Positions 16,515-64,000 of a stretch of DNA of 64,000 nucleotides are shown in pieces; position 1 is the stretch's first letter; every line of letters starts with the position of its first letter. This stretch comes from an uncultured Methanosarcinales archaeon (GTDB lineage Archaea > Nanobdellota > Nanobdellia > Woesearchaeales > ARS49). The translations under genes were made by a program, and so were the position numbers. The notes beneath the pieces are model-generated. The model did no database searches. It worked only from the letters and a program-made list of their open reading frames with translations, and was not told the DNA's origin. The stretch spans positions 263,085-327,084 of the forward strand of contig CAYGVI010000003.1 in the NCBI GenBank assembly GCA_964353335.1, given 5' to 3'.

Positions 16515-16546
16515 TTTAATTTTCTGATAAGAACTTTTATGGTTGG

Positions 16547-16617
16547 TCACTTGTGGACGGAGTCCACAAGTTCGTCGACAATCTGTGGATTGTCGAGATC
16601 TGTGCCGTAGGCACCCA
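16547..16617. repeat. Conserved multi-hairpin intergenic element, copy A (candidate structured ncRNA or mini-repeat)
   Basis: Perfect palindrome ACTTGTGGAC-GG-AGTCCACAAGT, then 'TCGTCGACAATC-TGTG-GATTGTCGAGA', then a 'GTGCC-GTAG-GCAC' hairpin. The core 'CAAGTTCrTCGACAATC...GATTGTCGAGA' recurs at 33345-33378. Confidence 0.35.
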
Positions 16618-16645
16618 ATATGCAGAATTCGTTTTATTATTGTGT

Positions 16646-24768: not shown

Positions 24769-25572
24769 ATGATTGTCAAAGAAGAATTTTTGAGCAAGCT
24801 CCGTCGATATTTCTCATTGAACCTCTATGAGGTCAAGATTTGGACGGCGCTTCTTTCCCGTGGTGTTGCAACCGCAGGGGAGCTTTCTGACATTGCAAAC
24901 GTTCCAAGGTCAAGGAGCTATGACGTCCTTGAGAGCCTTGAGCGCAAGGGATTTGTTATAATGAAGCTCGGCAAGCCAATCAAGTACATTGCGGTTCCAC
25001 CGCAGGAAGTGCTTGAGCGTGTCAAGAAGAACATGAAAGAAGAGGCAGACGAAAAAGTCAAGCGCCTCGAGCAGCTCAAAACAACAGATGTCCTCAACGA
25101 GCTTAACCTGCTCCACACGCAGGGAATCGAGCTTATCGAGCCTGCAGACCTTTCAGGTTCGCTGCGCGGACGGCACAACCTCTACTCGCACCTCGAGCTT
25201 ACCATCAGGAACGCCGAGAAGAGCGTGACCATAATGACAACCTCACAGGGCTTCCTCAGGAAAGTTGAAGGCCTGAAGCCGGTCTTTGAGAAGCTGAAGC
25301 GAAAGGGAGTCAAGGTCCGCATCGCAGCCCCGCTGACAAAGGAGACAAAGGATGCATTGAAGGACGTCTCTGAAGTCGCAGAGGTCAGGCACACTGATTC
25401 CAAGGCAAGGTTTGTCGTTGTTGACGGCAAAGACATCGTGTTCATGATTCTGGACGACAAGGAAGTCCACCCGACGTATGACGTCGGAATATGGGTCAAC
25501 ACGCCGTTCTTCGCGTCCGCAGTAGAGAACCTGTTCGACACTGCCTGGAAGAACATGAAGCCAGGCAAGTAA
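24769..25572 (+). CDS. TrmB-family transcriptional regulator, paralog 2
   Basis: 267 aa; a 38-aa stretch identical to the 1851..2654 protein in the wHTH; conserved C-terminal 'ARFVV(I/V)DGK...HP(S/T)YD.G.WVNT.FFA'; RBS 'aagggggg aggt'. Confidence 0.75.
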   Translation: MIVKEEFLSKLRRYFSLNLYEVKIWTALLSRGVATAGELSDIANVPRSRSYDVLESLERKGFVIMKLGKPIKYIAVPPQEVLERVKKNMKEEADEKVKRLEQLKTTDVLNELNLLHTQGIELIEPADLSGSLRGRHNLYSHLELTIRNAEKSVTIMTTSQGFLRKVEGLKPVFEKLKRKGVKVRIAAPLTKETKDALKDVSEVAEVRHTDSKARFVVVDGKDIVFMILDDKEVHPTYDVGIWVNTPFFASAVENLFDTAWKNMKPGK

Positions 25573-28859: not shown

Positions 28860-29339
28860 TTACGCGAGCTTCTTTTGCACTGCCGGCTTTGGCGCAGATG
28901 GTTTTGCCGCTGGCTTATTTTCTGCAGGTGCTTTTACTGCAGCAGTATTTGCGGGTGCTGCGGCCGGTGCCTTAGGAGCTGCTGCGTTGGCAGGAGCCTT
29001 TGCAGCCGCTGGCTTTGCTGCTGCTTTTGGAGCAGCAGTTTTTCCTGCGAGCTTGCTCTTCCTTGCCTTTCTTGGGCGCAGTGCCTTCTTTGGCTTTGTC
29101 TTGGGCGCGAACACGCCATAGCCTGCTGCCTCAAATGCCTTGGCAACCTGCTCGTGGCTTGCCCCTTTTTTTATGTCAAGAACTTTGTCAAGCGGCTCGA
29201 TGTGGAGTATGTTGCACTTTCTCCTCCTTGTCTCGCCGTCTATGAGCACGAAATTGTCATCAATGATATCAACTACAACGCATTTCAGCCCTGCGTCTCT
29301 TCCTGCTATTTTTACGCACAATCTTCCGATTTCAATCAT
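28860..29339 (-). CDS. rpl14e: Ribosomal protein L14e (KOW fold) with Lys/Ala/Pro-rich C-terminal extension
   Basis: 159 aa; 'MIEIGRLCVKIAGRDAGLKCVVVDIIDDNFVLIDG' is the L14e core, followed by a ~75-aa 'KPKKALRPRKARK...AAPKAAAKPAAAKAP...' histone-H1-like tail. Confidence 0.75.
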   Translation of the reverse strand: MIEIGRLCVKIAGRDAGLKCVVVDIIDDNFVLIDGETRRRKCNILHIEPLDKVLDIKKGASHEQVAKAFEAAGYGVFAPKTKPKKALRPRKARKSKLAGKTAAPKAAAKPAAAKAPANAAAPKAPAAAPANTAAVKAPAENKPAAKPSAPKPAVQKKLA

Positions 29340-29389
29340 TTTGTTCCTCCGCTCTCCTCAAGGGAATTCGTCACCGAGATTCCAAGAGC

Positions 29390-29656
29390 TTACATTCTTG
29401 CTTGTTCGATTATTTTGCGGCGCATGCATTGAGAACACAGCACGCCGCCATAAGGCCTTTCAGGCCTCTTCTGGCTTTTGGGCATTGAGTGCAAAGCGCG
29501 CGGAATAACAGCCTTTGAACCGTGCAGCACATTGCCGCAGCTGGCGCAGTGTGGCCTGCTTTTCTTGCGCACCTTGTAATGTATGACGTTCCTTCCGCCA
29601 GGTGTGCGTACGAATACGCGCCTGAACGTCCTTGAACGCTTCTTGCCTTCAACCAT
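29390..29656 (-). CDS. rpl34e: Ribosomal protein L34e
   Basis: 88 aa; 'RRVFVRTPGGRNVIHYKVRKKSRPHCASCGNVLHG...GGVLCSQCMRR' zinc-ribbon L34e. Confidence 0.85.
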   Translation of the reverse strand: MVEGKKRSRTFRRVFVRTPGGRNVIHYKVRKKSRPHCASCGNVLHGSKAVIPRALHSMPKSQKRPERPYGGVLCSQCMRRKIIEQARM

Positions 29657-29714
29657 AAGCTGGAACTTCCAGAGGGGTATTTAAAAAGGTTTCGGAGTAT
29701 ATTTAATAGGTCTG

Positions 29715-30572
29715 GTGCGTCCTGGGTTTTCTATGGTTGTACTTGTGAGATATGCTGAAATCGGGATAAAGGGCAAAAACCGTGATAAGTTTGAGCACGC
29801 CCTTGTCGCATGCATAGAGCGCAGCCTGCGCAAGCATGATGTAAAATTCTCAAAAGTCCGCAGGATGTACGGCAGGATTTGCATCGAGACAGATGACCCC
29901 TGCCCGTGCCTGAAGCATGTTTTCGGAATTGCCTCTTTCTCATTCGCAATTCCAACTGGAAAAACCATTGAGGAGGCATTTGCAGCCTCAAAGCAGCTTG
30001 TCGCAAAGCTGTCTGAAAACGATTCTTTCCGTGTTTCCTGCCAGCGGCTTGACAAAAAATTTGCACTTAAGTCACAGGAGGTCTGTTCCAAGCTGGGTGA
30101 AATGCTAAGGGCTGTGACAAAGGCAAAAGTAAAAATGGAAAAGCAGACGGTTGATGTCGCCCTTGAAATAATTGAGGGCACAATTTATCTGCTCACCGGC
30201 AGGACAGAAGGCCCTGGCGGAATGCCCATCGGCTCTGAAGGCAAAGTCATTGCGCTTATCGAGGATGATTCTTCAGTCCTTGCAGCCCTGCTGATTATGA
30301 AGCGCGGCTGTGAAATTATTCCTGCAATGCTCAAGGAAACTGATTTGTCCCTGCTGAAAGAGTTTGCCTGCGGCCAGGAGATAAAGCCATGGCACATAAG
30401 CGCAATTAATGAGATTGATGAAATCGCTGAAAAGCGCAAGGCATTGGCAGTTGTGATTAATGACACGTTTGAAAAAATACGCAGCATTGACCTGAAGTTG
30501 CTTGTGCTCAGGCCGCTTTCAGGATTAACAGGAGATGAAATTGCAAATGAGAGAAATGCAATGCAGTGTTGA
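29715..30572 (+). CDS. ThiI-like THUMP-domain protein with degenerate PP-loop (truncated ThiI paralog)
   Basis: 285 aa; the N-terminus 'VVLVRYAEIGIKGKNRDKFE' matches the ThiI N-terminal ferredoxin-like/THUMP region. 'GKVIALIEDDSSVLAALLIMKRGCEI' aligns with the ThiI PP-loop 'SLLSGGxDSPVA..LMMKRGVEV', but SGGxDS is replaced by EDDSSV; the protein ends ~100 aa later. Confidence 0.6.
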   Translation: MRPGFSMVVLVRYAEIGIKGKNRDKFEHALVACIERSLRKHDVKFSKVRRMYGRICIETDDPCPCLKHVFGIASFSFAIPTGKTIEEAFAASKQLVAKLSENDSFRVSCQRLDKKFALKSQEVCSKLGEMLRAVTKAKVKMEKQTVDVALEIIEGTIYLLTGRTEGPGGMPIGSEGKVIALIEDDSSVLAALLIMKRGCEIIPAMLKETDLSLLKEFACGQEIKPWHISAINEIDEIAEKRKALAVVINDTFEKIRSIDLKLLVLRPLSGLTGDEIANERNAMQC

Positions 30573-31536
30573 AGCGCCTGAAAAGGCTGCCTGGACACGG
30601 GACGATGCAAAGTTTGCCAATGACTTTGAGAAAAAAGTCAGCAAGACCATAACGCAGTACGGGCTCCTGTCAAAAAATGAGAAAATAATTGTTGCAGTCA
30701 GCGGCGGAAAAGACAGCACTGCAATCCTGCACATCCTGAAAAAGCTCGGCTATCCTGTTGAGGCAGTAACTGTTGACGCCCACATCGGCTGTTACACAGA
30801 GGAGAACCTGAAAAATCTTCGGGCGACGTGCAAAAAGCTCAATGTGAAGCTGCACGAGGTGCCTTTCAGGAAAGTTTTTGGCGCCTCATTGTGCTACATC
30901 CGGGATTATTTGAAGGAAAAAGGCCACAATTTCAAGTCCTGCACTGTCTGCGGCGTCCTGAGGCGGTATTTGCTGAACAAAAAGGCAAAAGAACTCAGGG
31001 CAGACAAGCTTGTCCTCGGCCACAATCTTGATGATGAAGCCCAGTCTGTTATGATGAATCTGCTAAAGAACCGCCCGGAGCTAAACGCAAGGCTTGGGCC
31101 CAAGGTTGACATGTCGGAAACCGCGAAGGTTTCCGAGCATGCTCAAGAACACGCCGCGGGCTTCAGCCCGGCGGTTCTTGACAGTGTCAAGGACAAAAAA
31201 TTTGTGCCGCGGGTAAAGCCTTTTTACAATATCCGCGAGGATGAGATTGTCCGTTACTCAAGGCTTATGGAGTTTCCTGTCAAGTACACGCGGTGCCCGT
31301 GCTCTGTTGAGGGCTTCAGGAGCGCTGTGAGGAATTTCCTGACTGATTTTGAGCAGGTTCAGCCGGGAATCAAGGAGAATGTTGTCAAAAGATTCCTTTT
31401 ACAGAGGGAAAAACTGCAGAAGCGCTATGCAAAAGGAAAGCATGCATTTTGCGCCCAATGCGGTGAATTCTCAAGCGGAAATGTCTGCAAGGCGTGCACT
31501 TTACTCGGGCTGCTGCACAAGCCTTTGAAGTCCTAG
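30535..31536 (+). CDS. PP-loop ATPase of the TtcA/TtuA (Ncs6) tRNA 2-thiolation family
   Basis: 333 aa; intact PP-loop 'VAVSGGKDSTAIL', Fe-S-type cysteines 'CTVCG...RCPCS', C-terminal zinc finger 'CAQCG...CKAC'; overlaps the upstream ThiI-like gene by ~38 nt. Confidence 0.7.
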   Translation: MKLQMREMQCSVEAPEKAAWTRDDAKFANDFEKKVSKTITQYGLLSKNEKIIVAVSGGKDSTAILHILKKLGYPVEAVTVDAHIGCYTEENLKNLRATCKKLNVKLHEVPFRKVFGASLCYIRDYLKEKGHNFKSCTVCGVLRRYLLNKKAKELRADKLVLGHNLDDEAQSVMMNLLKNRPELNARLGPKVDMSETAKVSEHAQEHAAGFSPAVLDSVKDKKFVPRVKPFYNIREDEIVRYSRLMEFPVKYTRCPCSVEGFRSAVRNFLTDFEQVQPGIKENVVKRFLLQREKLQKRYAKGKHAFCAQCGEFSSGNVCKACTLLGLLHKPLKS

Positions 31537-32259
31537 AAGCTCAGCGCGGGTTAGTTCCCTGTACCCTCCTGATGGCAAATCCCTGAGGGAAATGTTTGCA
31601 ATCTGGGTCCTCTTCAAACGCGCGACAGTGTAGCCGAGCTTTTTGAAAATAATCTTGACAATGTGCTTCATTCCCTCGTGCAGCGCAATCTCAATGTGTG
31701 ACGGCGTGTGCAAAACCACTTTGTCAGTTATCACCAGGTGCCTTCCCAAGCGTATTCCCTTTTTCAGCCTGCGCACGTCCTTGCGGTCAATCTCCCCTGT
31801 CAATGTGATGTGATAAGTTTTTTCTGTCTCATACCGCGGGTGCATAAGCCTGTTCGCGAGCTCGCCGTCATTTGTCATCAGGATTAACCCTTCTGCATCG
31901 CGGTCAAGCCTTCCGACAGGATACACGCGCGCGCCAGGCGGCACAAGCTGCATCACAGTTGGCCTTCCCTCAGGGTCAGAAACAGTGCTGACGACTCCGC
32001 GTGGCTTGTTGATGACAAAATATTTTTTTACCTCAGGCTTCCTGATTCTCGCGCCATCTACGCGTATATCGTCAAGCTCTATGTCTGCCTGGTCGCCCAG
32101 CTTGATAGTCTTGCCATTGACAATGACCTTTCCTGCAGCGATAATCTCCTCGCATTTTCTTCGCGAGGCAATCCCCGCCCTTGCCATTATTTTCTGCAAT
32201 CTTTCTCGCATAAGTGCTGATTTAATGCGAATGTTTATATAATTATGGTCGGTAAACAA
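31501..32259 (-). CDS. Pseudouridine synthase, RsuA/RluB family (S4 domain plus catalytic domain)
   Basis: 252 aa as tracked (true start may be the internal 'MRERLQKIMARAG'); S4 domain 'RLQKIMARAGIASRRKCEEIIAAGKVIVNG', catalytic 'YFVINKPRGVVSTVSD' and 'GRLDRDAEGLILMTNDG'. Confidence 0.75.
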   Translation of the reverse strand: MFTDHNYINIRIKSALMRERLQKIMARAGIASRRKCEEIIAAGKVIVNGKTIKLGDQADIELDDIRVDGARIRKPEVKKYFVINKPRGVVSTVSDPEGRPTVMQLVPPGARVYPVGRLDRDAEGLILMTNDGELANRLMHPRYETEKTYHITLTGEIDRKDVRRLKKGIRLGRHLVITDKVVLHTPSHIEIALHEGMKHIVKIIFKKLGYTVARLKRTQIANISLRDLPSGGYRELTRAELLGLQRLVQQPE

Positions 32260-32264
32260 AATTC

Positions 32265-32852
32265 ATGATTGACATTGTGTTTCCTGAGAAAAACGAGCAG
32301 GAATTTTTTGAAATGGCAAAAAAGCTCGGCTACAAGGGGCTTGTGCTTGTTTATCCCTCGCCTGCTGCTGCGAAAAGCGCGCCGAAGGCGCCTGCAGGGC
32401 TGAGTGTCAGGGCTGCTGTTCTTGCTGAGCCAAAAAAAGCATTTCAGCTGAGAAGCCAGGGCATACTGACTTTTGTGCAGTGCTCTGACCAGGACCGCGC
32501 TGTGCTCGAAAGGGGTTCTGCAGATGTGCTTTTCGGGGCAGAGAGCACAATGCCAAAGGATTACATGCACCAGCGCGGCTCAGGATTAAACCACGTGATG
32601 TGTGAGCTCGCGAAAAAGAATAATGTCACGATTGGATTCAGCTTTGCAGGCATACTCGCCTCAAGCCAGCGCTCGCAATTGCTCGGCAGGATATCGCAGA
32701 ACATAGTCCTCTGCAGGAAATATAAGGTCAGCACAGTCATTGCTTCATTTGCAAAAGACCCGTGGAAAATGCGCTCTCCGCATGACCTTGCCTCTTTTTT
32801 CACAGTACTTGGAATGCATCCCTCTGAGGCAAAAAGCGCATTAAAATTCTAG
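32265..32852 (+). CDS. rnp3: RNase P protein component 3 (Rpp30/Rnp3, TIM-barrel)
   Basis: 195 aa; 'GLNHVMCELAKKNNVTIGFSF...KYKVSTVIASFAKDPWKMRSPHDLASFFTVLGM' aligns closely with archaeal Rpp30 (PhoRpp30 '[21 protein letters not shown]...[33 protein letters not shown]'). Confidence 0.75.
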   Translation: MIDIVFPEKNEQEFFEMAKKLGYKGLVLVYPSPAAAKSAPKAPAGLSVRAAVLAEPKKAFQLRSQGILTFVQCSDQDRAVLERGSADVLFGAESTMPKDYMHQRGSGLNHVMCELAKKNNVTIGFSFAGILASSQRSQLLGRISQNIVLCRKYKVSTVIASFAKDPWKMRSPHDLASFFTVLGMHPSEAKSALKF

Positions 32853-33235
32853 CTAGAGGTCTCAAAAACTACAGATACTTTTCCAATCTCTGCCTGTTTG
32901 AGGCATTCCTCAGTATTTGTGGAATTGCTGCACTCAGAGATTGTCTTGCATTCTGGAAGGTCTGGCTGTTCACTGCACGGGATTAGCTCTTCTCTGGGGC
33001 CTGTTACTGCTTCAAAGCATTTCTGCAAATCCGCAATGCCTTCTTCGCCCGGTGCAATATTTTGCTCGCATTTCAGGAGTTGTTTTTCTTCCCTTATGCA
33101 CGCACTTTTGTCAGGGGTGGTTTCACATTCCTTGATTCTGGCTTCGTCAAGCTTTGGCTGGCTTTGCCAATATAGAATTGCTACTGCAGCAACCACCACA
33201 AGAAGGATTACCGCGATTAAAATGCCTCTTTTCAT
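32849..33235 (-). CDS. Small membrane-anchored/secreted Cys-rich protein (hypothetical)
   Basis: 128 aa; N-terminal TM/signal 'ILIAVILLVVVAAVAILYW', then 8 Cys in a Glu/Lys-rich domain. Confidence 0.4.
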   Translation of the reverse strand: MKRGILIAVILLVVVAAVAILYWQSQPKLDEARIKECETTPDKSACIREEKQLLKCEQNIAPGEEGIADLQKCFEAVTGPREELIPCSEQPDLPECKTISECSNSTNTEECLKQAEIGKVSVVFETSS

Positions 33236-33278
33236 GGCTTAAAAAAACGCCCTTTGGTTTATAAGCCTTTTCATCATG

Positions 33279-33405
33279 TCGGAAACCGCTTGTCAAGCAT
33301 TTTAGAGGATAGAGGCGGTTTCCGAGACTTGGGAATTGAAGATTCCCAAGTTCATCGACAATCCGAGATTGTCGAGACGTGCTCAAGAACCAGCGGGTTC
33401 TTGAC
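33279..33405. repeat. Conserved multi-hairpin intergenic element, copy B
   Basis: Hairpins GTCGGAAACCGC...GCGGTTTCCGAG and ACTTGGGAAT-TGAAG-ATTCCCAAGT, then 'TCATCGACAATC-CGA-GATTGTCGAGA', then AAGAACC-AGCGG-GTTCTT. The core is shared with copy A (16547-16617), with compensatory changes in the first stem. Confidence 0.35.
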
Positions 33406-33442
33406 ATAAAGTTTAAATACTCTCGTCTGTAAAATCCTCTGC

Positions 33443-35512
33443 ATGGGAAAAAAGAGGTTGTTGGCGCTAATTACATTTCTGGCTCTCCTAGGCGCATCTG
33501 CAGCAGCAGGCGCTACTATTGCGGGATACGCTGAAGAATATGTCTATACAAACCCCGGCTGCATCCCTTTTTGTTTTGGGAATAACAAAACATATGACCT
33601 TGGCGGAACATTTCAGGTTTTTGAAGCGACCAAAGTGGGTGGCCACCAGAATCATGAGGCAGAGTGGTTTGACGGCGGGCTTGCGCTCTTTGTTGGCAAC
33701 ACCCAGACCACGAGCTGGTACTTTTTGGGGGCTGCAAACCGCCCTCTGCAGACATTTTACCATGATTTTAACGGCTCATATGCAGACCGCGTTGTTGCCT
33801 GTGGCTGCAGTTATGACTACCACCAGAGCACCCACCCTTTTTCAATAGAATACAACAGGAATTTCTTTGTCAGAAGGACCAGTGTATTAGACGACCCAAA
33901 CGAGCCGCTCGGTGAGGCTGGAAGCTTCTTTACCAAGTTTTCAAACCTGACAAATGACTCAGGATGGAGGATAAGAGTGAATGCTGCCAGCCCCAACTCA
34001 ATGGTTTGGCTTGGTGACGAGGAAAGCTACACCACGCATGAAACCTCTGATTTGACTGCTAAAGTGTATGGCTGCGCAGACACAAACAAAAACCAAATCT
34101 GCGATGTTAGAGAGCCGAGCTTTATGTTATGCAATGATGTAGGCGGCGACTGGTACGATGACTTGTGTTGCGGAACAAACTATACAGAAGGATATGTCAA
34201 GTCAGAACCCATAAATATCACCCAGATTTGTGTTCAAAGCACTTATGCAGGATCCTGCACTCGTTATGCCGATGTTGTGCACAACAAGAGCATTAATGCC
34301 ATTTGCGGAAAGACTGCTGAAGGAAAATGGAAATGGGCTCCGCTTGATGAGGTTGGTGAAGTTTTTGACCTTCTCGGCTGGCCAAATGCATCTGTTGTTT
34401 CTGACGGAACAAACCTTTACAGCTGTGGAAACCAGATTGAAAACTACTCAGTACCGTCTGATGTTTACTCGGTGTGCTTAAAAACAGAAAGGCAACGGAC
34501 TGCAAAGGGATATGAGGATGTTTGCGTCAAGTACCAGTATTTGTGGAGACACACACAAATCATCAACAGCCCTGCAACAACCCTGTTTGGGCAATTCATC
34601 AGTGTCGCTGTCGGCAGTGCAACTCACATGTATTCCTGCAAGGACAAGGTTGTTTACGAATGCTCTGGCAAGACAGGGCCTTTCTCAACAAACAATGGCG
34701 CTGAGATGGGCACAACAAACCCGAGCTTTACTAATGAAACATTTTACTGCGCCTCTGACGCTGACTGGACATCTGACCTTGACATAAAGGACGATGAGAG
34801 CTGTGAGGCAGCAGGATTTTCATGGACAGGCTCGCGCTGCTGCAGCGAGGCAGATGACACTTCAGAATACTACAATGACCCCAAGTTCCCGAATGCAACA
34901 GGCGGCTGCTGGAACAAGATGTTTGTCAGGTCAGGCGATTATGCAGTAACTGACAGGATTCTCAACTACAAGGGCAAATTCTTCGGCTGCAGACTCAGCC
35001 TGATAAATGATGCCATCCTGCTTAATATCAAGGATTATCACCTGGATAACCTGCTTATTGACAACAGCATAACCCCTTGCGGCGCGGTGCTTATGGATGC
35101 CCAGCCAGGCGGAATGCCGCACGCAAAATGCCAGCCGAACGGCGAGTGGATGTTTACTGACGAGCCTGGCGGAGTAATCAACAAGAGCATAAAGTGGGCA
35201 GGCCTTGTCGGTCCGGGAATAGCATTGTCAGGCTGCTGCGCTCCAGACCAGTGCTGGAATGGCACAAAATGCCAGAAGCTCGGGACTTATTACAGGCTTG
35301 GCGAAGAGGGTTTCATTTGCAAGATGCTGCCGCCAACTTCAACGCCAGAACCGCCTACATCAGAAATATGTCACCACAACAATGATTGTCCCACGGGGCA
35401 ATACTGCGCAGATCAGGAGTGCATCAGTGGCTCGCTTCCAGATACCTGCGCTAACAATAATGCGTGTCCTTCGGGATATCACTGCCAACAACACGAATGT
35501 GTTGAAGAGTAA
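33443..35512 (+). CDS. Large secreted Cys-rich protein (hypothetical surface protein)
   Basis: 689 aa; Sec signal 'MGKKRLLALITFLALLGASAAAG'; >50 Cys; C-terminus carries two 'NxCPxGxxCxxxxC' knots. Confidence 0.6.
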   Translation: MGKKRLLALITFLALLGASAAAGATIAGYAEEYVYTNPGCIPFCFGNNKTYDLGGTFQVFEATKVGGHQNHEAEWFDGGLALFVGNTQTTSWYFLGAANRPLQTFYHDFNGSYADRVVACGCSYDYHQSTHPFSIEYNRNFFVRRTSVLDDPNEPLGEAGSFFTKFSNLTNDSGWRIRVNAASPNSMVWLGDEESYTTHETSDLTAKVYGCADTNKNQICDVREPSFMLCNDVGGDWYDDLCCGTNYTEGYVKSEPINITQICVQSTYAGSCTRYADVVHNKSINAICGKTAEGKWKWAPLDEVGEVFDLLGWPNASVVSDGTNLYSCGNQIENYSVPSDVYSVCLKTERQRTAKGYEDVCVKYQYLWRHTQIINSPATTLFGQFISVAVGSATHMYSCKDKVVYECSGKTGPFSTNNGAEMGTTNPSFTNETFYCASDADWTSDLDIKDDESCEAAGFSWTGSRCCSEADDTSEYYNDPKFPNATGGCWNKMFVRSGDYAVTDRILNYKGKFFGCRLSLINDAILLNIKDYHLDNLLIDNSITPCGAVLMDAQPGGMPHAKCQPNGEWMFTDEPGGVINKSIKWAGLVGPGIALSGCCAPDQCWNGTKCQKLGTYYRLGEEGFICKMLPPTSTPEPPTSEICHHNNDCPTGQYCADQECISGSLPDTCANNNACPSGYHCQQHECVEE

Positions 35513-36727: not shown

Positions 36728-38043
36728 AAATGAAAGCGCAGCTTACGCTGATGATGCTAATGGGGCTTGTAATGCTTATCGCGGTTGGAATTGTTTTGTA
36801 CATCGGCGGGTCTTCAATGACAAAAAGCACAGAGCGGGGAAGTGAGCAGCAGCGTTTGAGCCAGTCTGCAATCCAGACAATCAGGGATTATGTCCACTCG
36901 TGCCTTGACGCAACCACAACAGCTGCATTGGACCTTATCGGAAAGCAGGGCGGAGTGCTTTACAGGGCGCAGGGCGGCTTGACTCCTGACATCCTGCCTT
37001 CAGACCCGCAGGGCGGGCGCTATGTTATTTATGATGGGCTTAATGTCAGCTACCTCATCCACAGGCCCAGCCAGAATGTTGGCAGGCTTTATTTTGCAGA
37101 GCCTCCGGATTATCCATGGGTTACATTCCCGTATGTCCTTAACAAGTCAGACATGTCAGTCATGAGGACAACATACACCGGCTACTTTGGCATATCGCTT
37201 TTGCCCCCGCTTTTCAAGCCAGGCAAGGACTCCATCCAGGAACAGATTGAGTCATACATCAGCTTCAACCTTCCGCGCTGCACAGACTGGAGCTCATTCA
37301 AGGGGCTTTCAATCACTGCTGACAAGCCAAATGTCTCTGTAATAATCGCAGAGAACAAGACGCAGATTGAAACAGAGCAGTATTTCTCAGTGGTCGCGAA
37401 CTGGCAGGTGAACATCACTGACAGTTCCACAGGTTCCAACACCACACTTGACATGTTCTCGCGCGGTTATCCTGTCCACCTCGCAAAATTCTATGTTTTC
37501 GTGCAGAGCCTGATTTACAGCGAGATAAATGATTCATCATTTGACCCGCTCTCGCAAAGCTCGCCTGCAAGCCCTGTTTTTGTTTTCAGGGACATTTTCA
37601 AAAATCCAGAGGATGAAGGCGCTGATGACCTGATTATTGTAAAGGATGCAGAGTCAGAATTGCGCGGCAAGCCATTGGAGTTCAGGATACTGAGGCAGAA
37701 CCGCTATCCTGCGCTTGTCTGGATAAACCAGTCTGACATCAACAGCTATGCGTTTTACAGGATGGGCATGTGCCCAGCGAAAGCGCAGTCAATATTCCTC
37801 GAAGGCAACCAGCTCAAAATAACTTATGCAACAGACTCTCCGTATGAATGGTCTGGCACGCTTTCAGCAATTGACCCTGATGAGGACAATGTCAGCTTCA
37901 GCATCAAGCCTGAGGACGGGATAATAGATGACGTCCCGCTAAATGACGCCCTGTTCAGGCTGTTTGTTTATGCCTCTGACGGCGGAAACACAAAGGATTA
38001 CCAGATTGTCAACCTGACACTTGCGGGTTGCCCTGAAGAATGA
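36724..38043 (+). CDS. Class III signal peptide (type-IV-pilin-like) protein, 440 aa
   Basis: Start 'MKMKAQLTLMMLMGLVMLIAVGIVLYIGG' (basic residues, A, then Q+1 and a hydrophobic helix) overlaps the upstream stop (ATGA); large extracellular domain. Confidence 0.5.
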   Translation: MKMKAQLTLMMLMGLVMLIAVGIVLYIGGSSMTKSTERGSEQQRLSQSAIQTIRDYVHSCLDATTTAALDLIGKQGGVLYRAQGGLTPDILPSDPQGGRYVIYDGLNVSYLIHRPSQNVGRLYFAEPPDYPWVTFPYVLNKSDMSVMRTTYTGYFGISLLPPLFKPGKDSIQEQIESYISFNLPRCTDWSSFKGLSITADKPNVSVIIAENKTQIETEQYFSVVANWQVNITDSSTGSNTTLDMFSRGYPVHLAKFYVFVQSLIYSEINDSSFDPLSQSSPASPVFVFRDIFKNPEDEGADDLIIVKDAESELRGKPLEFRILRQNRYPALVWINQSDINSYAFYRMGMCPAKAQSIFLEGNQLKITYATDSPYEWSGTLSAIDPDEDNVSFSIKPEDGIIDDVPLNDALFRLFVYASDGGNTKDYQIVNLTLAGCPEE

Positions 38044-41000
38044 GAAAACTTTTGCTTATCGCGGTGGTTGCGGCATTTTTCTACATGGCACTCTTTTCCC
38101 AACAGGCATCCGGCCAGGAGCAGGGATGCTGCTGCGAGCCGATTTATCACCGCGGAATCATTGAGGAGCGCTCTGCGTGCGAGGAAAAAGGATATAACTT
38201 CACGTCAGAGCTTCCTGCCGAGGTCGGAGAAAGCTGCGACCCCATCTGCAATTCAACATTCGGCATTCCAATCATCATAACCCCGCCTGCTGACTGCGAG
38301 TCCCCGTTTTTCAACCCTGCTCCAATGAGCGTGGTTGCAAAGGCAGTCAAGGGAAAGAAGCAGATCAGGCTAATCTACACTGTTCCGTGCCCGATGCAGG
38401 CAATTGCTGTTAACATCTCGCGCTGTGCAGGTGATGATTGCGAGGACTTTTCCCAGATTGCCCAGATGTCGCCCACAGGGGTTTACACTGACGCGTCACC
38501 TGACCTTCTCTGGAACACCCCTTACACTTACATGGTGGTCATTACCTCGCGGATTTCAGGCGCTTCAGAGCCTGGCTTCGCAATAGGCAATGCAGGTGAC
38601 ATTGAATGCTGGAATCAGGGATTTGACAAGTTTTGCATTTCAGATTACTACTACACCCGCTTCCAGGAATATTTGTCAATGTATGGCTACAAGGATACCA
38701 GTGCAGATGCATTTGCAGGCGATTTACAGTCTTCTGTTGAGCTGACATTTGCTGACAAGTTTAATACCGGGAGATACTGCAATGATATCAACCTGCTCAG
38801 CGACACTGGCTTAAGCTGCCCTGAAGGAAAGAAGTGTGTCTCAGGAAAGCTCGGGCTTGCTTGCATCACTCCAACGTCCTGCGAAGGCGGCGGATTGTTC
38901 GGGCTTTACTCATCACTTGAAACCTGCGAGGGAACCGCGTCCGCGAAGAAGTACTGCTTCTTTGACCGCTCGCACAGTTCTGTTGACCGGTGCTACTCCT
39001 GCAGTCCGCAGATGAGCTGCGCTGACTACAGGTCAGAGGGCACGTGCAACCGCGACAACTGCTTTGCAGGCAACTGCTCATGGAAGCCTGTTTTCCCTGA
39101 CATCGGAATCGGTGTTTGTGTTGACAGCAGGTTCCCAAACTGCGCGTGGTGCACAAAGCAGGGCACAGAAGGGCTTGAAAACACTGATGCCTACAATGAA
39201 GTGTTTGACCAGTGCACTACAAGGAAATCAATAGCGCTCACTGTTCCAAATTATCTTTGCACATTTGACAAGAATGCCCAGGAAAGCAATGGCTGTGACG
39301 CCACTGCCTGCATGGATTACAATGACACTGACTGCGGCTCGCCTGCAGGAGGCATTCAGCTCAATCCTGACAACTCGCTTGAGGTTGGAAGCACTGACCC
39401 GTGCAGCATAAAGGTCTGCCAGCTTCAGTCCGGCATAGGCTGCCTGAAGAATGCTGACGGAAACGGTCTCTTTGACTGCGGCATAAAATCTGATGACCGA
39501 AGGCAGTGCGAGCTTGACCATTATCCGCCGAACACAACTTTTGTCGCTACCTCTTACAAGCCAAACCGCATGGACTGGCTCGAGGCAAGGATGCTTGACC
39601 AGGTGAACGGCACTGCAGACGCAGATTACATGCAGGGCAAACAGGGCTACAGGCTGAGGGTTTGCGTTGACAGCGAAGAAACACCCTGCGCTGAAGCCAC
39701 AACATTTGCCGAGACAAACCTTTCCTTGCTGAACTTCAATGACCTTTACCTGCAGGCAGGCAGGGATGTGGTTGCCACGATGTCCGACGGCGAGAACACG
39801 CTGAAATATTATGGAGTTGACCGCAGCAACAACCCTGAAGTTATCAAGGAAATGACAATACTTGCCTGCGACAAATGCCAGGGGCCCAAAGTGCTTGGCA
39901 TCAATGTCACCCCAAGCCGGAGCTACGAAGGAAAGTTTTACACAATATCCGAAATTCCAGTAATAACTGTCGCGTTCAATGAGCTTTCAACCCTGACAAC
40001 TGCCACGCTTTCAATCGGCAACAAGGTGATGCCTGTAAACGTCATGCCTCTTGGAGGGGCGAATTATGATTACACTTTTATCCCGATAAACACGCTGGAG
40101 GATGGCGAATACCTGCTGGCGTTCAATGCAAAGGACAGCAATGGGCTGCTTATGGACTTGCCTGGCTTGGCAATTATTGTTGTTGACACCACCCCTGGGG
40201 ATGTCACAATACTTCCTCCTGACGGAACTGTCATCAATGACACGTCAGTTGCAATCTCTTTCACCTTCAATCAGCCTCCTGTCAGCCTGCTTGGTGCTTA
40301 CCTTGACAATGAAGTCTGGATTAGCAAGTATGCCACGAAGAAAAAAATAATGAACCTGACATCAAGCCTTGTGGAAACAGAGCCCAATAAGGTCTATGAC
40401 ACCACTGTCGATGAGCTTTACGGCGGAAAGAAGAACATCAGGGTTTATGCAGAGGACTTCGCAGGCAATCCTGTAATAGGAAAGTCAAGCTTCTGGATTA
40501 ACAGCGGCCCATTGCAGATGAGGATGCGCGAGCCGAGCTGGGGTGTAAGCGCAACATATGTGTTTGACATCGCGATTGATACATCAATAGCCGCCACGTG
40601 CAAGTATGCGTATGACCTGCCTGCGCCTGTTCCTGTTGCGGCGTTTAATGACTTCCTTGCCCCATTCCCAGAGGAAAAAGAGGTTGTCCACAAGATTCCC
40701 GGATTTAACAAGATTTCTTTCGGTGATATGAAAGCGCACAAGCTTAGTGTTTATTGCAAGGCAGGGGCTAACATCACGATGGAGACATTTGAGCTACGCG
40801 TTGACCCAAGCCCGCCAACAATCAAGTCTGCTTACGCAGACCCTGCGGTAATAATTGAGCGCAGGACTCCAAGCGTGGACATATTCACAACATACCTGAA
40901 GGCTCAGACAGATGATGACGGCTTCTGCAGGTACAGCACCGAGAGCAAGCCGTTCATACTTATGGACGGGCTGTTCTCAGGCTTTGACGAATACCCCAAG

Positions 41001-43118
41001 AAATCCCACAGCGCTGAAATAAACGTAACTAAGGACATGACGTCATACACTTACTATGTTGCCTGCAAGAACACAGCAGAGCTGCCTTCTGCAACAGTGC
41101 CTGTCAAATTCAGCGTTGACACAACCATACCATTCGCGATAACAAGCCTCACCCCGCCATACTCCAACTCAACAGAATTCAGCATCGCCCTGCAGACAAA
41201 CAAGCGCGCATTATGCTACATTGCAGAAGACCCTGAAGTCACGCCCACTTTCATGGGATTGATGGGCCATTCGCACGTCTACCCTGTTGAAGTCAATAAG
41301 TCAGGCAATTATTCCTGGTATGTGAAGTGCAGCACAGGCGCAGGAAGCGAGGTTGCTGATATGTGGATCAATGTGCTTGTTGACACAACCCCGCCTGTAA
41401 TGCTGTATGTGAATGACAGTTCCAACCTGGCTGAGACTCCTGATGTCTCTTACTTCCTTGACCAGTTGATGGTAAAATTCCTTGGAGTTGACAATGAGAC
41501 CGCTGTTAATGCGTATTATTACCGCCTGCAGACTTTCTTCGCGAACGCCACAATCCTCAACTGGACTCTCAGCACAAACACAAACGGCACAGCATTTTAC
41601 GTGACAGGGTTGAACCTCACCGACGGCAACAAGTACAGGTTCGAGGCCTATCCTGTGAACATTATCGGGCTGCAGGGCGAGGCAAAGCAGAGCGATGGTG
41701 TGACGATTGATTCAACCAAGAAGCCTGCTGACTGCGTTAATGACATTCAGGATGGAAATGAAACAGACCTTGACTGCGGTGGCTTATGCCCTGGCTGCAA
41801 TGATGGCGGCAAGTGCAATGCTGATACAGACTGCCTGTCAGGATTCTGCGACAATGGACTCTGCGCACTGGTCGGCTGCGATGATGTTGCAAAGAATGGC
41901 AATGAAACAGATGTTGACTGCGGCGGAGGAGTGTGCCTGCCGTGCGGAATGAACAAGAGCTGCGTGCAGGATGCTGACTGCGCGAGCGGCAGCTGCAATT
42001 ATGGCACGTGCGGCGACCCGATACCATGCTCAGACGGCTTGCTCACAGGAACAGAATCAGACATTGACTGCGGAGGCTCATGCCCGAACAAGTGCGGCGA
42101 GGGAAAGAACTGCCAGGTGCCTTCTGACTGCGCAGGCGCACTGCTTTGCATTGACGAAACCTGCCAGGGATTGCTCGACAGCGACAATGACGGCGTTGAG
42201 GACGCAAAAGACAAGTGCCCGAACACGCCTGTCGGTGAAGCAGTTGATGAAAACGGCTGCTCTGCCTCGCAAAGGTTCACCTGTGGCGATGAGATATCTG
42301 ACGGCTGGAGGATAAAGTACTTTGGCAGCGTGCTTTGCGACGGAGACGGCGCCCCTGGTGCAGACCCTGACAAGGACGGCCTTACAAATGTTGAGGAATA
42401 CAGGGCGCGCACTGACCCGGCAAACGCAGACACTGATGGCGATGGATGGAATGACAAGGTTGAGCTTGACAAGGGCTATGACCCTCTTGACCCTGCTTCG
42501 CACCCGCCAAGCAAGGTGCGTATTTTGCTCTGGACTCTGCTCATACTTCTTTTGCTTGCAGTTCTGGGTGTCGGCGGATGGCTCGGCTACCAGTATTACA
42601 TGGAGAAGAGGCTTGAAGCCCTTCCGCCTTCAATACCTGCAAAGGCAGAAGCCCCTGAGCGCAAGTACAGGAAGTGGCCTTCAATAATTGAAAAGCTGCG
42701 CAGGATAGCGCGCAAGGAAGAGCCTGGTGTCATTGACCGCGACTGGGTATCGCTCGCAGAGCTTTCAGAGCGCCTGAAGGAAGGGAAAGTGCACGTGCAC
42801 AAGGATGTCTTTGAACGCCTTGAGGGCCTGATAAGCGGAAAGATTCCAAAGGAGGAGACAGAAAGCATCCTTGAGGCAATCCAGAAGGAGCCAAAGGCAT
42901 TCAAGCTTTTGCGCAGGATTTCATTTGAGAAGCTCTCTCCTGCTGAAAAGGAGTTTGTGCGCAAGCGCCTTGCATTCCTAAAGTCAGGAAAGCTCACATC
43001 AGCAGAGCTTGAGCAGGTGCTCACAAAGCTGCGCATAACCGCAGCATATTATAGGACTCACAGGGAAGAGCTTGAGCGCGAGCTTGAGGAATGGCTTGAT
43101 GAGCGGAGGCACAAATGA
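38040..43118 (+). CDS. Giant (1,692 aa) Cys-rich surface protein with thrombospondin-type-3-like Ca-binding repeats, C-terminal TM anchor and cytoplasmic coiled-coil tail
   Basis: Signal 'MRKLLLIAVVAAFFYMALFS'. Three ~40-aa tandem repeats '(N)ETDxDCGGxCxxCxxGxxCxxxxDCxSGxCxxGxC' (nt ~41730-42170). TSP3-like 'DSDNDGVEDAKDKCPNTP' and 'DPDKDGLTNVEEY...DTDGDGWNDKVELD' motifs. TM 'ILLWTLLILLLLAVLGVGGWLGY', then a Lys/Glu-rich tail. Confidence 0.7.
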   Translation: MRKLLLIAVVAAFFYMALFSQQASGQEQGCCCEPIYHRGIIEERSACEEKGYNFTSELPAEVGESCDPICNSTFGIPIIITPPADCESPFFNPAPMSVVAKAVKGKKQIRLIYTVPCPMQAIAVNISRCAGDDCEDFSQIAQMSPTGVYTDASPDLLWNTPYTYMVVITSRISGASEPGFAIGNAGDIECWNQGFDKFCISDYYYTRFQEYLSMYGYKDTSADAFAGDLQSSVELTFADKFNTGRYCNDINLLSDTGLSCPEGKKCVSGKLGLACITPTSCEGGGLFGLYSSLETCEGTASAKKYCFFDRSHSSVDRCYSCSPQMSCADYRSEGTCNRDNCFAGNCSWKPVFPDIGIGVCVDSRFPNCAWCTKQGTEGLENTDAYNEVFDQCTTRKSIALTVPNYLCTFDKNAQESNGCDATACMDYNDTDCGSPAGGIQLNPDNSLEVGSTDPCSIKVCQLQSGIGCLKNADGNGLFDCGIKSDDRRQCELDHYPPNTTFVATSYKPNRMDWLEARMLDQVNGTADADYMQGKQGYRLRVCVDSEETPCAEATTFAETNLSLLNFNDLYLQAGRDVVATMSDGENTLKYYGVDRSNNPEVIKEMTILACDKCQGPKVLGINVTPSRSYEGKFYTISEIPVITVAFNELSTLTTATLSIGNKVMPVNVMPLGGANYDYTFIPINTLEDGEYLLAFNAKDSNGLLMDLPGLAIIVVDTTPGDVTILPPDGTVINDTSVAISFTFNQPPVSLLGAYLDNEVWISKYATKKKIMNLTSSLVETEPNKVYDTTVDELYGGKKNIRVYAEDFAGNPVIGKSSFWINSGPLQMRMREPSWGVSATYVFDIAIDTSIAATCKYAYDLPAPVPVAAFNDFLAPFPEEKEVVHKIPGFNKISFGDMKAHKLSVYCKAGANITMETFELRVDPSPPTIKSAYADPAVIIERRTPSVDIFTTYLKAQTDDDGFCRYSTESKPFILMDGLFSGFDEYPKKSHSAEINVTKDMTSYTYYVACKNTAELPSATVPVKFSVDTTIPFAITSLTPPYSNSTEFSIALQTNKRALCYIAEDPEVTPTFMGLMGHSHVYPVEVNKSGNYSWYVKCSTGAGSEVADMWINVLVDTTPPVMLYVNDSSNLAETPDVSYFLDQLMVKFLGVDNETAVNAYYYRLQTFFANATILNWTLSTNTNGTAFYVTGLNLTDGNKYRFEAYPVNIIGLQGEAKQSDGVTIDSTKKPADCVNDIQDGNETDLDCGGLCPGCNDGGKCNADTDCLSGFCDNGLCALVGCDDVAKNGNETDVDCGGGVCLPCGMNKSCVQDADCASGSCNYGTCGDPIPCSDGLLTGTESDIDCGGSCPNKCGEGKNCQVPSDCAGALLCIDETCQGLLDSDNDGVEDAKDKCPNTPVGEAVDENGCSASQRFTCGDEISDGWRIKYFGSVLCDGDGAPGADPDKDGLTNVEEYRARTDPANADTDGDGWNDKVELDKGYDPLDPASHPPSKVRILLWTLLILLLLAVLGVGGWLGYQYYMEKRLEALPPSIPAKAEAPERKYRKWPSIIEKLRRIARKEEPGVIDRDWVSLAELSERLKEGKVHVHKDVFERLEGLISGKIPKEETESILEAIQKEPKAFKLLRRISFEKLSPAEKEFVRKRLAFLKSGKLTSAELEQVLTKLRITAAYYRTHREELERELEEWLDERRHK

Positions 43119-49836: not shown

Positions 49837-50142
49837 ATGGATAAGAAAGCTCAGGGGCTACCAATAACAACAATTATCATAGCTATCCTTGGACTGGTTG
49901 TTCTGGTCATTTTGTTCGCAATCACTACAGGCAGGCTTGCCATATTTGGAAGGGCTACTGCAGAATGCCAGGGCATTTGTGTCGGTGAATACACTGGCGC
50001 AACCCCTGACCAAAATGCCCGCGAATGCACAGCTGGTTTTGAGAAAGAAGTTGGCGGCAATTATGTTAAGCCAGGACAGCCGCAGAGTATCAAGGCAGAG
50101 GAAATACTCAAGTGCTCGCGCTGCTGCCTGCCAATTGCCTGA
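49837..50142 (+). CDS. Small pilin (class III signal peptide), paralog 1; candidate major pilin
   Basis: 101 aa; 'MDKKAQGLPITTIIIAILGLVVLVILFAI'; mature part has 6 Cys including a C-terminal 'CSRCC'. Confidence 0.55.
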   Translation: MDKKAQGLPITTIIIAILGLVVLVILFAITTGRLAIFGRATAECQGICVGEYTGATPDQNARECTAGFEKEVGGNYVKPGQPQSIKAEEILKCSRCCLPIA

Positions 50143-50272: not shown

Positions 50273-50551
50273 ATGAAGAAAGCACAAGGTCTTCCAATAA
50301 CAACAATCATTATTGCAGTTCTTGGGCTGGTTGTTCTGATTGTTATTATGGGAATATTCGGGGTCCGCAGCCAGAAGTTCGGCAAGGGCGTAAGCGAGGT
50401 AGCTGAGCCCGTCTGCCAGGCGCAGTATGTTACTTCCATGACTGACTGCGATGCACGTGGCGGCGAAGCCCAGGTTGGCAGCTTTGTTAAGGAAGACAAG
50501 AGCCGCCTTGGCTTTACAGAAGTCTGTTGCTCTAAGGCACAATCACCCTAA
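50273..50551 (+). CDS. Small pilin (class III signal peptide), paralog 2
   Basis: 92 aa; 'MKKAQGLPITTIIIAVLGLVVLIVIMGIFG', near-identical N-terminus to paralog 1; C-terminal 'VCCSK'. Confidence 0.55.
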   Translation: MKKAQGLPITTIIIAVLGLVVLIVIMGIFGVRSQKFGKGVSEVAEPVCQAQYVTSMTDCDARGGEAQVGSFVKEDKSRLGFTEVCCSKAQSP

Positions 50552-55575: not shown

Positions 55576-55881
55576 ATGATGCTTATGAAGAAGCGCGGAC
55601 AGGGTTTGCCAATCAACACTATCATTCTTGCAGTGCTTGGGCTGGCTGTTCTTGTCATCCTTCTTTTCCTTGTGAGCGGCAAGCTGAGTGAGGGCTCCAA
55701 GAAGTATGGCAATATCACCCAGAGCGCAGAACAGCAGGCAAAGTCACAGGATGTTTGCGAGAGTGTCTTTGCCTATCCGCAGAGAAAGTGCCTTTCTTCA
55801 TCCGAGTGTACCCAAAGGAACGGCTTTGACAGGCCAGGGTACAAGGGCTGTGGTTCTAATGTTTGCTGCGAGCTTGGATAG
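55576..55881 (+). CDS. Small pilin (class III signal peptide), paralog 3
   Basis: 101 aa; 'MMLMKKRGQGLPINTIILAVLGLAVLVILLFLV'; C-terminal 'CGSNVCCELG'; same architecture as 49837/50273. Confidence 0.55.
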   Translation: MMLMKKRGQGLPINTIILAVLGLAVLVILLFLVSGKLSEGSKKYGNITQSAEQQAKSQDVCESVFAYPQRKCLSSSECTQRNGFDRPGYKGCGSNVCCELG

Positions 55882-63467: not shown

Positions 63468-63573
63468 GCTCGTTTTTTTATTTTATTTTTTATTTTTATG
63501 TCGGAAATACGCAGTCTGAATTGGAGATTGTGCGTATTTCCGATCATGCTCGTAAATCTGGAGGATTGACGAC

Positions 63574-64000
63574 ATGCGCTTGTTCCTATCGTGCGAAATA
63601 CCAAAGGCGATTTCTGATTACATTAACGAATTGTCCAAGCAATTGCCCGAGGCAAAGCTTGTTGTTCCGCACAACATTGATTTGACAATAAAGTTCCTGG
63701 GCGAAGTGCCTGACGCAAAGCTTGATGAAATTAAGCAAAAGCTCTCGGAGATAAAGTTCAAGCCTTTCAAAGCCATGCTTAACGGCACTGGTGTTTTCAC
63801 AGAGGATTTTATCAGGGTTGCCTGGGTTGGCTTGACTCCTTCTGAGAAGTTTGAAGAGCTGCACGTAATCGCTGACAATGCCCTGAAAGGATTGTTCCCT
63901 GAGGAAAAGCGCTTCCAGGCGCATTTGACAATCGCCCGGGTGAAATACGTTGAGGACAAGCAGAAATTCCTCGGCGTCCTCAAGCTGATAAAGGTTGAGC
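63574..64000 (+). CDS. thpR: RNA 2',3'-cyclic phosphodiesterase / 2'-5' RNA ligase (ThpR/LigT, 2H family), 3'-truncated by the window end
   Basis: 'MRLFLSCEIP...PHNIDLTIKFLGEV' and 'AHLTIARV' give the two H-x-T-x motifs of 2H phosphoesterases; the ORF runs off the window. Confidence 0.6.
   Translation, partial: MRLFLSCEIPKAISDYINELSKQLPEAKLVVPHNIDLTIKFLGEVPDAKLDEIKQKLSEIKFKPFKAMLNGTGVFTEDFIRVAWVGLTPSEKFEELHVIADNALKGLFPEEKRFQAHLTIARVKYVEDKQKFLGVLKLIKVE

Follow-up and report, generated by a model that had tools for sequence, protein, structure and literature searches.

Abutting-hairpin repeats in a Woesearchaeales genome: probable miniature mobile elements of a DPANN lineage

The core unit and its two copies in the window

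The stretch of DNA analyzed here (the window, 64,000 nucleotides (nt) at its full length) comprises positions 263,085 to 327,084 of the forward strand of contig CAYGVI010000003.1 (assembly GCA_964353335.1), from an uncultured archaeon placed by GTDB in the Woesearchaeales. The genes of the window are archaeal and include an RFC small subunit, TyrRS, a tRNA-splicing endonuclease, and FEN1. For one window gene the nearest named homologues came from 'Candidatus Woesearchaeota', and a relative of ~94% identity was deposited as 'Candidatus Nanoarchaeia archaeon'. Two look-alike clusters of hairpins, pointed out in the original prediction, were found in the window and read as described there: one (copy A) lies where two convergent genes end, the other (copy B) in a divergent promoter region. 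The recurrent unit was redefined as 16549-16598 in copy A and 33327-33377 in copy B, and is called the core below. Copies A and B are probably (about three chances in four) members of a family of 50-55-nt miniature palindromic mobile repeats, each made of two abutting hairpins and acquired or lost as one piece, in this DPANN lineage. The two cores and their hairpins (H2 and H3), as given by the sequence and its folds, are:

16549-16598, plus strand: core copy A, 50 nt, H2 followed by H3
16549-16571, plus strand: H2 of core A, ACTTGTGGAC-GGA-GTCCACAAGT
16572-16598, plus strand: H3 of core A, TC-G-TCGACAATC-TGTG-GATTGTCGA-GA
33327-33377, plus strand: core copy B, 51 nt, with H2 ACTTGGGAAT-TGAAG-ATTCCCAAGT and H3 TC-A-TCGACAATC-CGA-GATTGTCGA-GA

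Common to both cores is an H2 hairpin (ACTTG..CAAGT) that abuts H3 (TC-R-TCGACAATC..GATTGTCGA-GA) with no linker, the H3 stem running on past a bulged purine into a TC/GA pair. H2 has a length of 23-28 nt and H3 of 27 nt. The core has no terminal inverted repeats; inverting one of its ends (ACTTG.. and ..CGAGA) does not give the other. Between copies A and B, seven of the 10 H2 pairs are the same, and pairs 6, 8, and 10 differ, each by a double, compensated change. The first stem had been described as entirely different in the two copies yet paired throughout; its pairing stands, while its difference shrinks to these three pairs.

The pattern TCGACAATC-N(2-8)-GATTGTCGA occurred twice in the window against an expectation of 0.00 (0 in 100 shuffles), and the junction CAAGTTCRTCGACAATC twice against 0.26. 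RNA folding of regions A and B compared with shuffles gave z = -4.3 and -7.9, respectively; folding as single-stranded DNA (ssDNA) gave z = -7.1 to -7.9 for either strand, the strands being equal. Ten perfect hairpins with a stem of at least 9 bp were found in the window, six of them from the core or from the shell elements described below. A TATA box for the minus-strand gene is read at ~33259-33266 and one for the plus-strand gene at 33411-33418; judged from the sequence, copy B lies between the two and is outside both predicted transcripts.

Core versions, covariation, and presence or absence in relatives

The H3 palindrome was scanned across one genome per species, where most matches were chance occurrences in bacteria. 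Seven matches fell in two archaeal metagenome-assembled genomes (MAGs), and all seven had an H2-like ACTTG..CA(A/C)GT directly 5' and GAG(A/T) 3'. A stricter pattern matched 13 metagenome contigs. Altogether, 13 distinct core versions of 50-55 nt were represented in MAG JBGPSD01, MAG CAYYLN01, and three JGI metagenomes. The family is not limited to the pair in the window; such a limit is what the original prediction had named as speaking against it. In the archaeal loci examined, every exact H3 was directly adjoined on its 5' side by an H2-like hairpin, so that there is no gene between the core hairpins.

Pairing held in 98.6% of the 282 cells of the 13-version alignment, with zero one-sided changes and zero G.U pairs. 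Five H2 pairs were changed on both sides; the cells involved numbered 20, where shuffles gave 5.7 and none of 500 reached the observed value. A sixth H2 pair showed all four Watson-Crick types. Controls with slid partners paired at 29-45%. H3 variants found by other routes were all compensated: TCGACAAGC/GCTTGTCGA, TCGCCAAT/ATTGGCGA, and CGCCAATC/GATTGGCG. The hairpin is under maintenance. Since wobble pairs are missing and both strands fold equally, the structure indicated is one at the DNA level and not at the RNA level. A covariance model built from the 13 versions scored every copy at 61-71 bits (core A 69.5 bits, core B 70.7 bits) and the inverted copy in locus L055, with its compensated TCGCCAAT/ATTGGCGA H3, at 51.6 bits; a search of the window with it returned no cores beyond A and B. 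Stem covariation, first proposed from the two copies, accordingly extends to 13 through the five doubly changed H2 pairs, and the check put forward with it, a covariance model searched against related genomes, recovers all copies.

Core contexts were mostly intergenic, including the gap between rpoB'' and rpoB', the gap between rsmB and a NIP7-like gene, and a position beside a tRNA-like sequence (recognized by eye); one core was inside a degraded reverse-transcriptase open reading frame (ORF). Both orientations relative to the adjoining genes were seen.

Several of these loci have features of their own. L055 1637-1766 holds five consecutive hairpins, with two cores head to head and an H3-like TCGACAAGC/GCTTGTCGA, a mosaic of the BIME type. 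L014 2129-2310 holds a core and a hairpin GCAGCCGAAA-TCAA-TTTCGGCTGC in the 180-nt gap between the split rpoB'' and rpoB'; the flanks of this core (RTGATGAAAATC.. and ..TTTCAGCA) recur in L123, L130, and L133. L122 1282-2064 (minus strand) is an RVT_1 ORF (E = 1e-16) with a YVDD motif, which appears N-terminally truncated and has its 3' end overlapped or replaced by a composite of hairpins. This reverse transcriptase was considered as the mobilizer and rejected: the composite has taken the place of the 3' end of an already truncated gene, and five other copies of the composite have unrelated neighbors. The ORF was probably disrupted by the composite.

The relatives that overlap the window were, with their identity to it:

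L001: 100%
L002, L168, and L169: ~98% (L002 98.2%; L168 and L169 98.5%)
L127: 97.8%
L135 and L137: ~94%
L163: ~85%

At site A, L002 matches the flanks and is without exactly 16549-16598, leaving the empty site GGTTGGTC|TCTGTGCC. At site B, L135 and L137 are without exactly 33327-33377, leaving TTTCCGAG|CATGCTC; L127 and L163 carry the core there, identical at 51 of 51 positions. These two independent indels share the boundaries of the element, namely the outer feet of the two hairpins. Comparison of filled and empty alleles revealed no target-site duplication and no flanking direct repeat at either site. Deletion at site B by slippage between short CGAG(A) repeats was rejected as the source of the empty allele; it predicts an extra A (TTTCCGAGACATGC), and TTTCCGAGCATGC was observed.

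Around core A the surrounding sequence has a recurring form of its own:

16537-16620, plus strand: A-type composite, with left flank TTATGGTTGGTC and right flank TCTGTGCC-GTAG-GCACCC around core A

Related cores in L068, L060, and L022 have similar flanks on both sides, and the A-type flanks are kept in the core-less L002. The core-less A-type version is not significantly structured (z = -1.6). Copy A, too, is thus a composite whose core can be absent. A third hairpin that had been counted as part of copy A (GTGCC-GTAG-GCAC, 16602-16614) remains in the core-less allele and so falls outside the unit, although it does recur beside related copies.

The shell family and its insertion sites

Core B lies inside a larger pair of hairpins, the shell, which belongs to a second two-hairpin family with three copies in the window and the ends TGTCGGAAAC..GTTCTTGACA. 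The extra 5' hairpin and the last hairpin that had been assigned to copy B are the H1 and H4 hairpins of this host shell. The three shell copies are:

31112-31183, plus strand: shell of 72 nt, in frame within a TtuA/TIGR00269-type tRNA thiolase gene (30535-31536)
33276-33406, plus strand: shell hosting core B; H1 (CA)TGTCGGAAACCGC..GCGGTTTCCGAG, the core, CGTGC, and H4 TCAAGAACC-AGCG-GGTTCTTGA-CA
63499-63574, plus strand: third shell; H1 TGTCGGAAATACGCA..TGCGTATTTCCGA, T-CATGC, and an H4-like TCGTAAATC-TGGAG-GATTGACGA-CA

The 10-mer ATGTCGGAAA occurred three times in the window, always on the plus strand (at 31111, 33276, and 63498), against 0.13 expected. The shell ends TGTCGGAAAC and GTTCTTGACA, with one of them inverted, match at only 7 of 10 positions.

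The CCGAG^CATGC junction holds a core in each of four different shells: that of copy B in the window, L010, L024/L132, and L060. In a fold of the core-less L135 shell, the insertion point of the core is a 1-nt bulge of the extended H1 stem. All 51 nt of core B are identical in L024/L132, where they lie inside a different shell. A composite of ~205-220 nt was found on six contigs of one metagenome, five of them with full-length copies, and has sharp ends; in it a long closing stem surrounds a further hairpin and a core, and H4 follows. Mosaic chains of hairpins were represented in L055, L060, and the Ga0209542 composite. Viral carriage of the elements was rejected: two scans of IMG/VR viral contigs gave 25 matches to the 17-mer, all of them chance matches without the right arm of H3, and no matches to the shell junction.

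The shell in the TtuA-like gene adds 24 amino acids (aa), DMSETAKVSEHAQEHAAGFSPAVL, which are absent in all 10 aligned homologues, including one 95% identical in that alignment. In the PH0300 structure, which is without the 24 aa, the insert falls between positions 4 residues apart. The DNA of L135 and L137 has the empty site GG-TTGACA-GTGTCAAGG; in the gene of the window, TTGACA is followed at once by 72 nt (TGTCGG...GTTCTTGACA). Like the core, then, the shell can be present or missing at a site. The target is a small palindrome, TTGACA-G-TGTCAA. Its left half equals the conserved 3' end of the shell itself, so the TTGACA repeat was not counted as a target duplication. In the AlphaFold (AF2) model of the TtuA-like protein, residues 181-220 have a pLDDT below 50 and lie between confident domains, which is compatible with a tolerated loop. 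Members of 329 aa from other assemblies in the cluster at 90% identity or more have the length of the insert-bearing protein P0001, a comparison of lengths only.

The shell at 63499-63574 folds as ssDNA with z = -6.3 and is identical in L168 and L169, the loci themselves being 98.5% identical to the window. Its 3' terminal base is the A of the ATG of a ligT-like gene (called LigT_PEase), and an AT-rich tract lies on its other side. If transcribed, this shell would form a structured 5' leader of the ligT-like gene. A shell of the same subfamily (same H4 stem, loop 1 nt different) lies at L170 271-379, 10 nt past a TTATAAAA box, and was called as the first 36 residues of P0121, a 76-aa ORF that is AbrB/SpoVT-like by eye. 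The N-terminus of P0121 is likely an annotation artifact arising from the ATG of the element. A 70-aa query made by joining the three forward frames of the shell gave one weak match, to P0121, and did not show widespread insertion within genes.

Left flanks of shells were TTGACA (twice), TTGAAA, GTGAAA, TTTACA, TTCACA, CCACA, ATCA, and TTTTA, and right flanks of cores were YRTGC in five of nine contexts; in both cases the sample is small and the motif loose. A TATA box (TTTAAATA) stands 5 nt downstream of the shell at 33276-33406. Three two-hairpin elements, independent of one another, stop 2-6 nt upstream of TTTAAATA (window 33406-33418, L024 3196-3210, and L166 11621-11680). The TFB-recognition element would lie here, and the placement may reflect an insertion preference for promoters or an effect on the promoter.

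Lineage-specific hairpin pairs were also found at other intergenic sites in L170 and in the more distant L166. At L166 9085-9150 a pair TCGAAACC..GGTTTCGA and CGCCAATC..GATTGGCG lies just past the TATA box upstream of a THUMP-domain gene, with three direct copies of GGTTTCG around it; at the corresponding place (29676-29700) the window shows GGTTTCGGAG alone.

Elsewhere in the window other repeats were found. A 240-nt direct repeat with 78% identity (1888-2127 and 24809-25048) lies within two 267-aa ORFs (1851-2654 and 24769-25572). An orthologue of the second ORF was called TrmB family, and the two ORFs are probably paralogous regulators. An N-terminal KKAQGLPI with a hydrophobic segment after it is common to three genes (49843-49922, 50276-50355, and 55591-55670); the arrangement resembles, by eye, archaeal pilin-type (class III) signal peptides and suggests a pilin-like surface-protein cluster. 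At 41732-42076, within the 1692-aa ORF 38040-43118, three tandem repeats of ~150 nt (a 51-nt conserved block every 144-150 nt) encode a Cys/Asp motif (..ETD.DCGG) and form a repeat domain of a giant surface protein.

Interpretation and comparison with known systems

The options offered in the original prediction were a small non-coding RNA (ncRNA), an attenuator-like or terminator-like structure, and a miniature non-autonomous repeat. The last of these is the one borne out, by the exact presence and absence of 50-51 nt, the occurrence at unrelated loci in several genomes, and the nesting. In a mobile repeat, the hairpin formed in ssDNA would be the feature recognized by the machinery that mobilizes or deletes the unit, and stem mutations would always be matched on the other arm because this machinery reads ssDNA hairpins. 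The likeliest machinery would be a trans-acting, hairpin-recognizing single-strand transposase of the HUH type, as in REP/RAYT, IS200/IS605, and IS91. Mobilization in trans by such an enzyme is favored because of the terminal hairpins, the missing terminal inverted repeats and target-site duplications, the clean empty sites, the preference for hairpin feet and bulges, the loose motifs, and the strictly Watson-Crick stems. The same features typify elements that HUH endonucleases handle as single strands. We propose this enzyme class tentatively, at rather less than even odds. Effects on neighbors (promoter spacing, structured 5' leaders, and the 24-aa loop of TtuA) would be by-products.

Several points weigh against a mobile family. 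No transposase, RAYT, TnpA/TnpB, or insertion sequence with matching ends was found among the Pfam-called genes of the loci examined. Copy number is low, at two cores and three shells per 64 kb and three to four exact-H3 cores per MAG. The site-B pattern (present, present, absent, present with rising distance) takes two events under either gain or loss, and each indel may be an insertion or a precise loss. The intergenic region at site B (33189-33471) is 94-98% identical to L163 12600-12830, and the flanking genes are ~75-88% identical; functional constraint could account for this, as could recent spread or conversion of the composite. The structural alignment behind the pair counts was built by hand from the hairpins, which favors structure, and the invariance of H3 among the collected copies was imposed by the search patterns.

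The same patterns could arise with no dedicated transposase, through replication errors at palindromes (template switching and hairpin skipping) together with gene conversion between shells via the short flanks ..CCGAG and CATGCTCAAGAA... The unit is bounded exactly by the feet of abutting hairpins, the points at which hairpin-skipping deletions stop. Compared with L135, the shell in the window has differences at several positions of the H1 loop and H4 despite flanks of ~98% identity, with L127 and L163 mosaic in the manner of conversion tracts, and the same 51 nt of core are found in two shells that are otherwise unlike. Around the L166 hairpin pair, the three direct copies of GGTTTCG and one inverted copy suggest local genesis of palindromes. 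Such a process leaves unexplained the cores in unrelated flanks (rpoB''-rpoB', rsmB-NIP7, and the reverse-transcriptase pseudogene) and the shell in the TtuA coding sequence, where the TTGACA hexamer alone is shared; flanks of 5-12 nt are also short for homologous conversion. We consider it an unlikely source, though the main rival. A duplex reading, in which the palindromes are double-stranded sites bound by a protein dimer (a transcription factor, a partition protein, or an architectural protein) and duplicated near promoters, draws on the perfect 9+9 palindrome of H3 and on the three independent shells that end 2-6 nt upstream of TTTAAATA (window B, L024/L132, and L166:11621-11672). However, the loops vary (3-4 nt in H3, 3-7 nt in H2, and 4 to ~65 nt in H4), and the inner H2 changes its sequence yet stays complementary, which a dimer reading the duplex does not need. 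With the core missing in close relatives and one copy, a shell, inside a coding sequence, dimer binding seems very improbable.

A structured ncRNA or cis-regulatory RNA element, in which the core or the shell with its core is kept by selection on RNA folding, would account for the strong covariation and the very stable folds. Some shells (63499-63574 and L170) lie between a TATA-like box and a start codon and would hence be 5' leaders if transcribed; all three shells of the window are co-oriented with the gene that they precede or occupy, and the region of site B stands out for its conservation between the window and L163. RNA-level selection is nonetheless improbable. No Rfam match was found at gathering thresholds over the whole window, nor any at E<=1 over 29300-33500, and the 282 paired cells hold no G.U pairs or one-sided changes, with the strands folding equally. 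Strains 94-98% identical do without the core; copy B is placed upstream of both divergent TATA boxes, outside the predicted transcripts, and copy A between convergent gene ends; core copies occur in both orientations relative to their neighbors; and the H1 stem of L163 has uncompensated changes. The ncRNA option of the original prediction is set aside on these grounds. Among more specific RNA candidates, an archaeal bulge-helix-bulge intron was rejected on a reading of the sequence, since no pairing was seen around CCGAG|ACTTG and CGAGA|CGTGC and copies lie in positions that appear untranscribed. A C/D-box sRNA was rejected as well: the L014-type copies do follow an AUGAUGA box, but a D box is missing, and the window holds nothing comparable. 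The conserved block at 29340-29660, also tried as an RNA, is the L34e gene. Termination or attenuation of transcription, suggested by the position of copy A between the stops of convergent genes, can be discounted almost entirely. Archaeal termination proceeds mainly via oligo-T tracts, with hairpins unnecessary. Neither copy has a T-run after H3 (the nearest T-rich tract, 16633-16642, is outside the unit and also present in the core-less allele), and the gene contexts are opposite, copy B being in a divergent promoter region.

Among known systems, the bacterial REP/BIME/REPIN elements with RAYT, a Y1 HUH enzyme (PMC2817692, PMC3116915, PMC3733652), are alike in their palindromic hairpin units of 20-30 nt. 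Further likenesses are the mosaics in both orientations (as in L055), the compensated stems, the missing terminal inverted repeats and target-site duplications, and the copies near gene ends and promoters. They differ in that the units described here begin with ACTTG or TC-R-TCGA and have no GTAG/CGTC tag at the 5' foot; the sole GTAG is the loop of the flanking hairpin, at 16607-16610. The host here is archaeal, and the unit is two different hairpins, not an inverted REP doublet. The apparent copy number is low, one family member is in a gene, and no RAYT was found among the loci examined.

The Rickettsia palindromic elements (RPEs) are bacterial, of ~100-150 bp, with 44 within genes of one genome (PMC10969869). 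Like them, the elements described here are small palindromic repeats of a host-dependent microbe with a reduced genome, and insert in frame in housekeeping genes (here a shell and not a core). In contrast, one in-gene copy was seen here, unit length is 50-80 nt, and the sequences are unrelated. Nesting of one family within another is, to our knowledge, not a described feature of RPEs. As the IS200/IS605 family is generally understood, its elements resemble those described here in having a hairpin at each end, an intact empty site, and neither terminal inverted repeats nor target-site duplications, and perhaps in inserting beside a short motif (here TTGACA/TTNACA before the shell, and often YRTGC after the core). 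The hairpins here are, however, terminal and not subterminal, with no room for guide sequences of the IS608 type, and the target motifs are loose. Double-hairpin elements of fungal mitochondria are likewise very small mobile units that nest in each other, occasionally enter coding sequence, and vary in presence among strains; they are organellar, GC-rich in an AT-rich genome, and unrelated in sequence or host to those described here. PATEs of Haloquadratum are an example of miniature derivatives of IS200/IS605 elements (PMC3119063).

Yeast mitochondrial GC clusters (PMC4478555) share very small hairpin units, mutual nesting, occasional coding insertion, and strain-level presence or absence. 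They are organellar, GC-rich in an AT-rich genome, and marked by a characteristic target duplication, and have no relation in sequence or host to the present elements. Like classical MITEs (deletion derivatives of DDE transposons), the elements described here are small, non-coding, multicopy, and polymorphic at two sites; unlike them, they have no terminal inverted repeats, and no target-site duplication at sites A and B. Archaeal MITEs have been listed for Sulfolobus, Halobacterium, Haloquadratum, Desulfurococcus, and 'several other archaeal genomes' (2024 review, PMC10969869). Our literature search found no report of such repeats in DPANN or Woesearchaeota.

Taken as mobile repeats, copies A and B may belong to an undescribed REP/RAYT-like system of DPANN archaea, in which an enzyme acting in trans would move a 50-nt double hairpin into bulges and junctions of other hairpins, building nested mosaics beside promoters and occasionally in genes; this extended form is speculative, and we give it a minor share of the probability. 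Some composites were possibly co-opted as promoter-proximal or 5'-leader regulatory structures, which, if true, would explain why the intergenic region at site B is more conserved than its flanking genes. Selfish hairpin DNA is the most economical reading.

Bacterial repeats of this small palindromic kind (REP/REPIN, RPE, and Correia elements) have received much study, those of archaea hardly any. On the reading preferred here, that of a mobile family, the reduced genomes of uncultured symbionts carry actively turning-over repeats that differ between strains 94-98% identical. The repeats can serve as strain-level markers, call for caution over spurious N-terminal extensions and protein 'insertions', and account for some contig breaks in MAGs. 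If the reading is true, the 50-nt double hairpin would be among the smallest mobile units with defined boundaries, and would offer a tractable case of how hairpin repeats move without an evident classical transposase.

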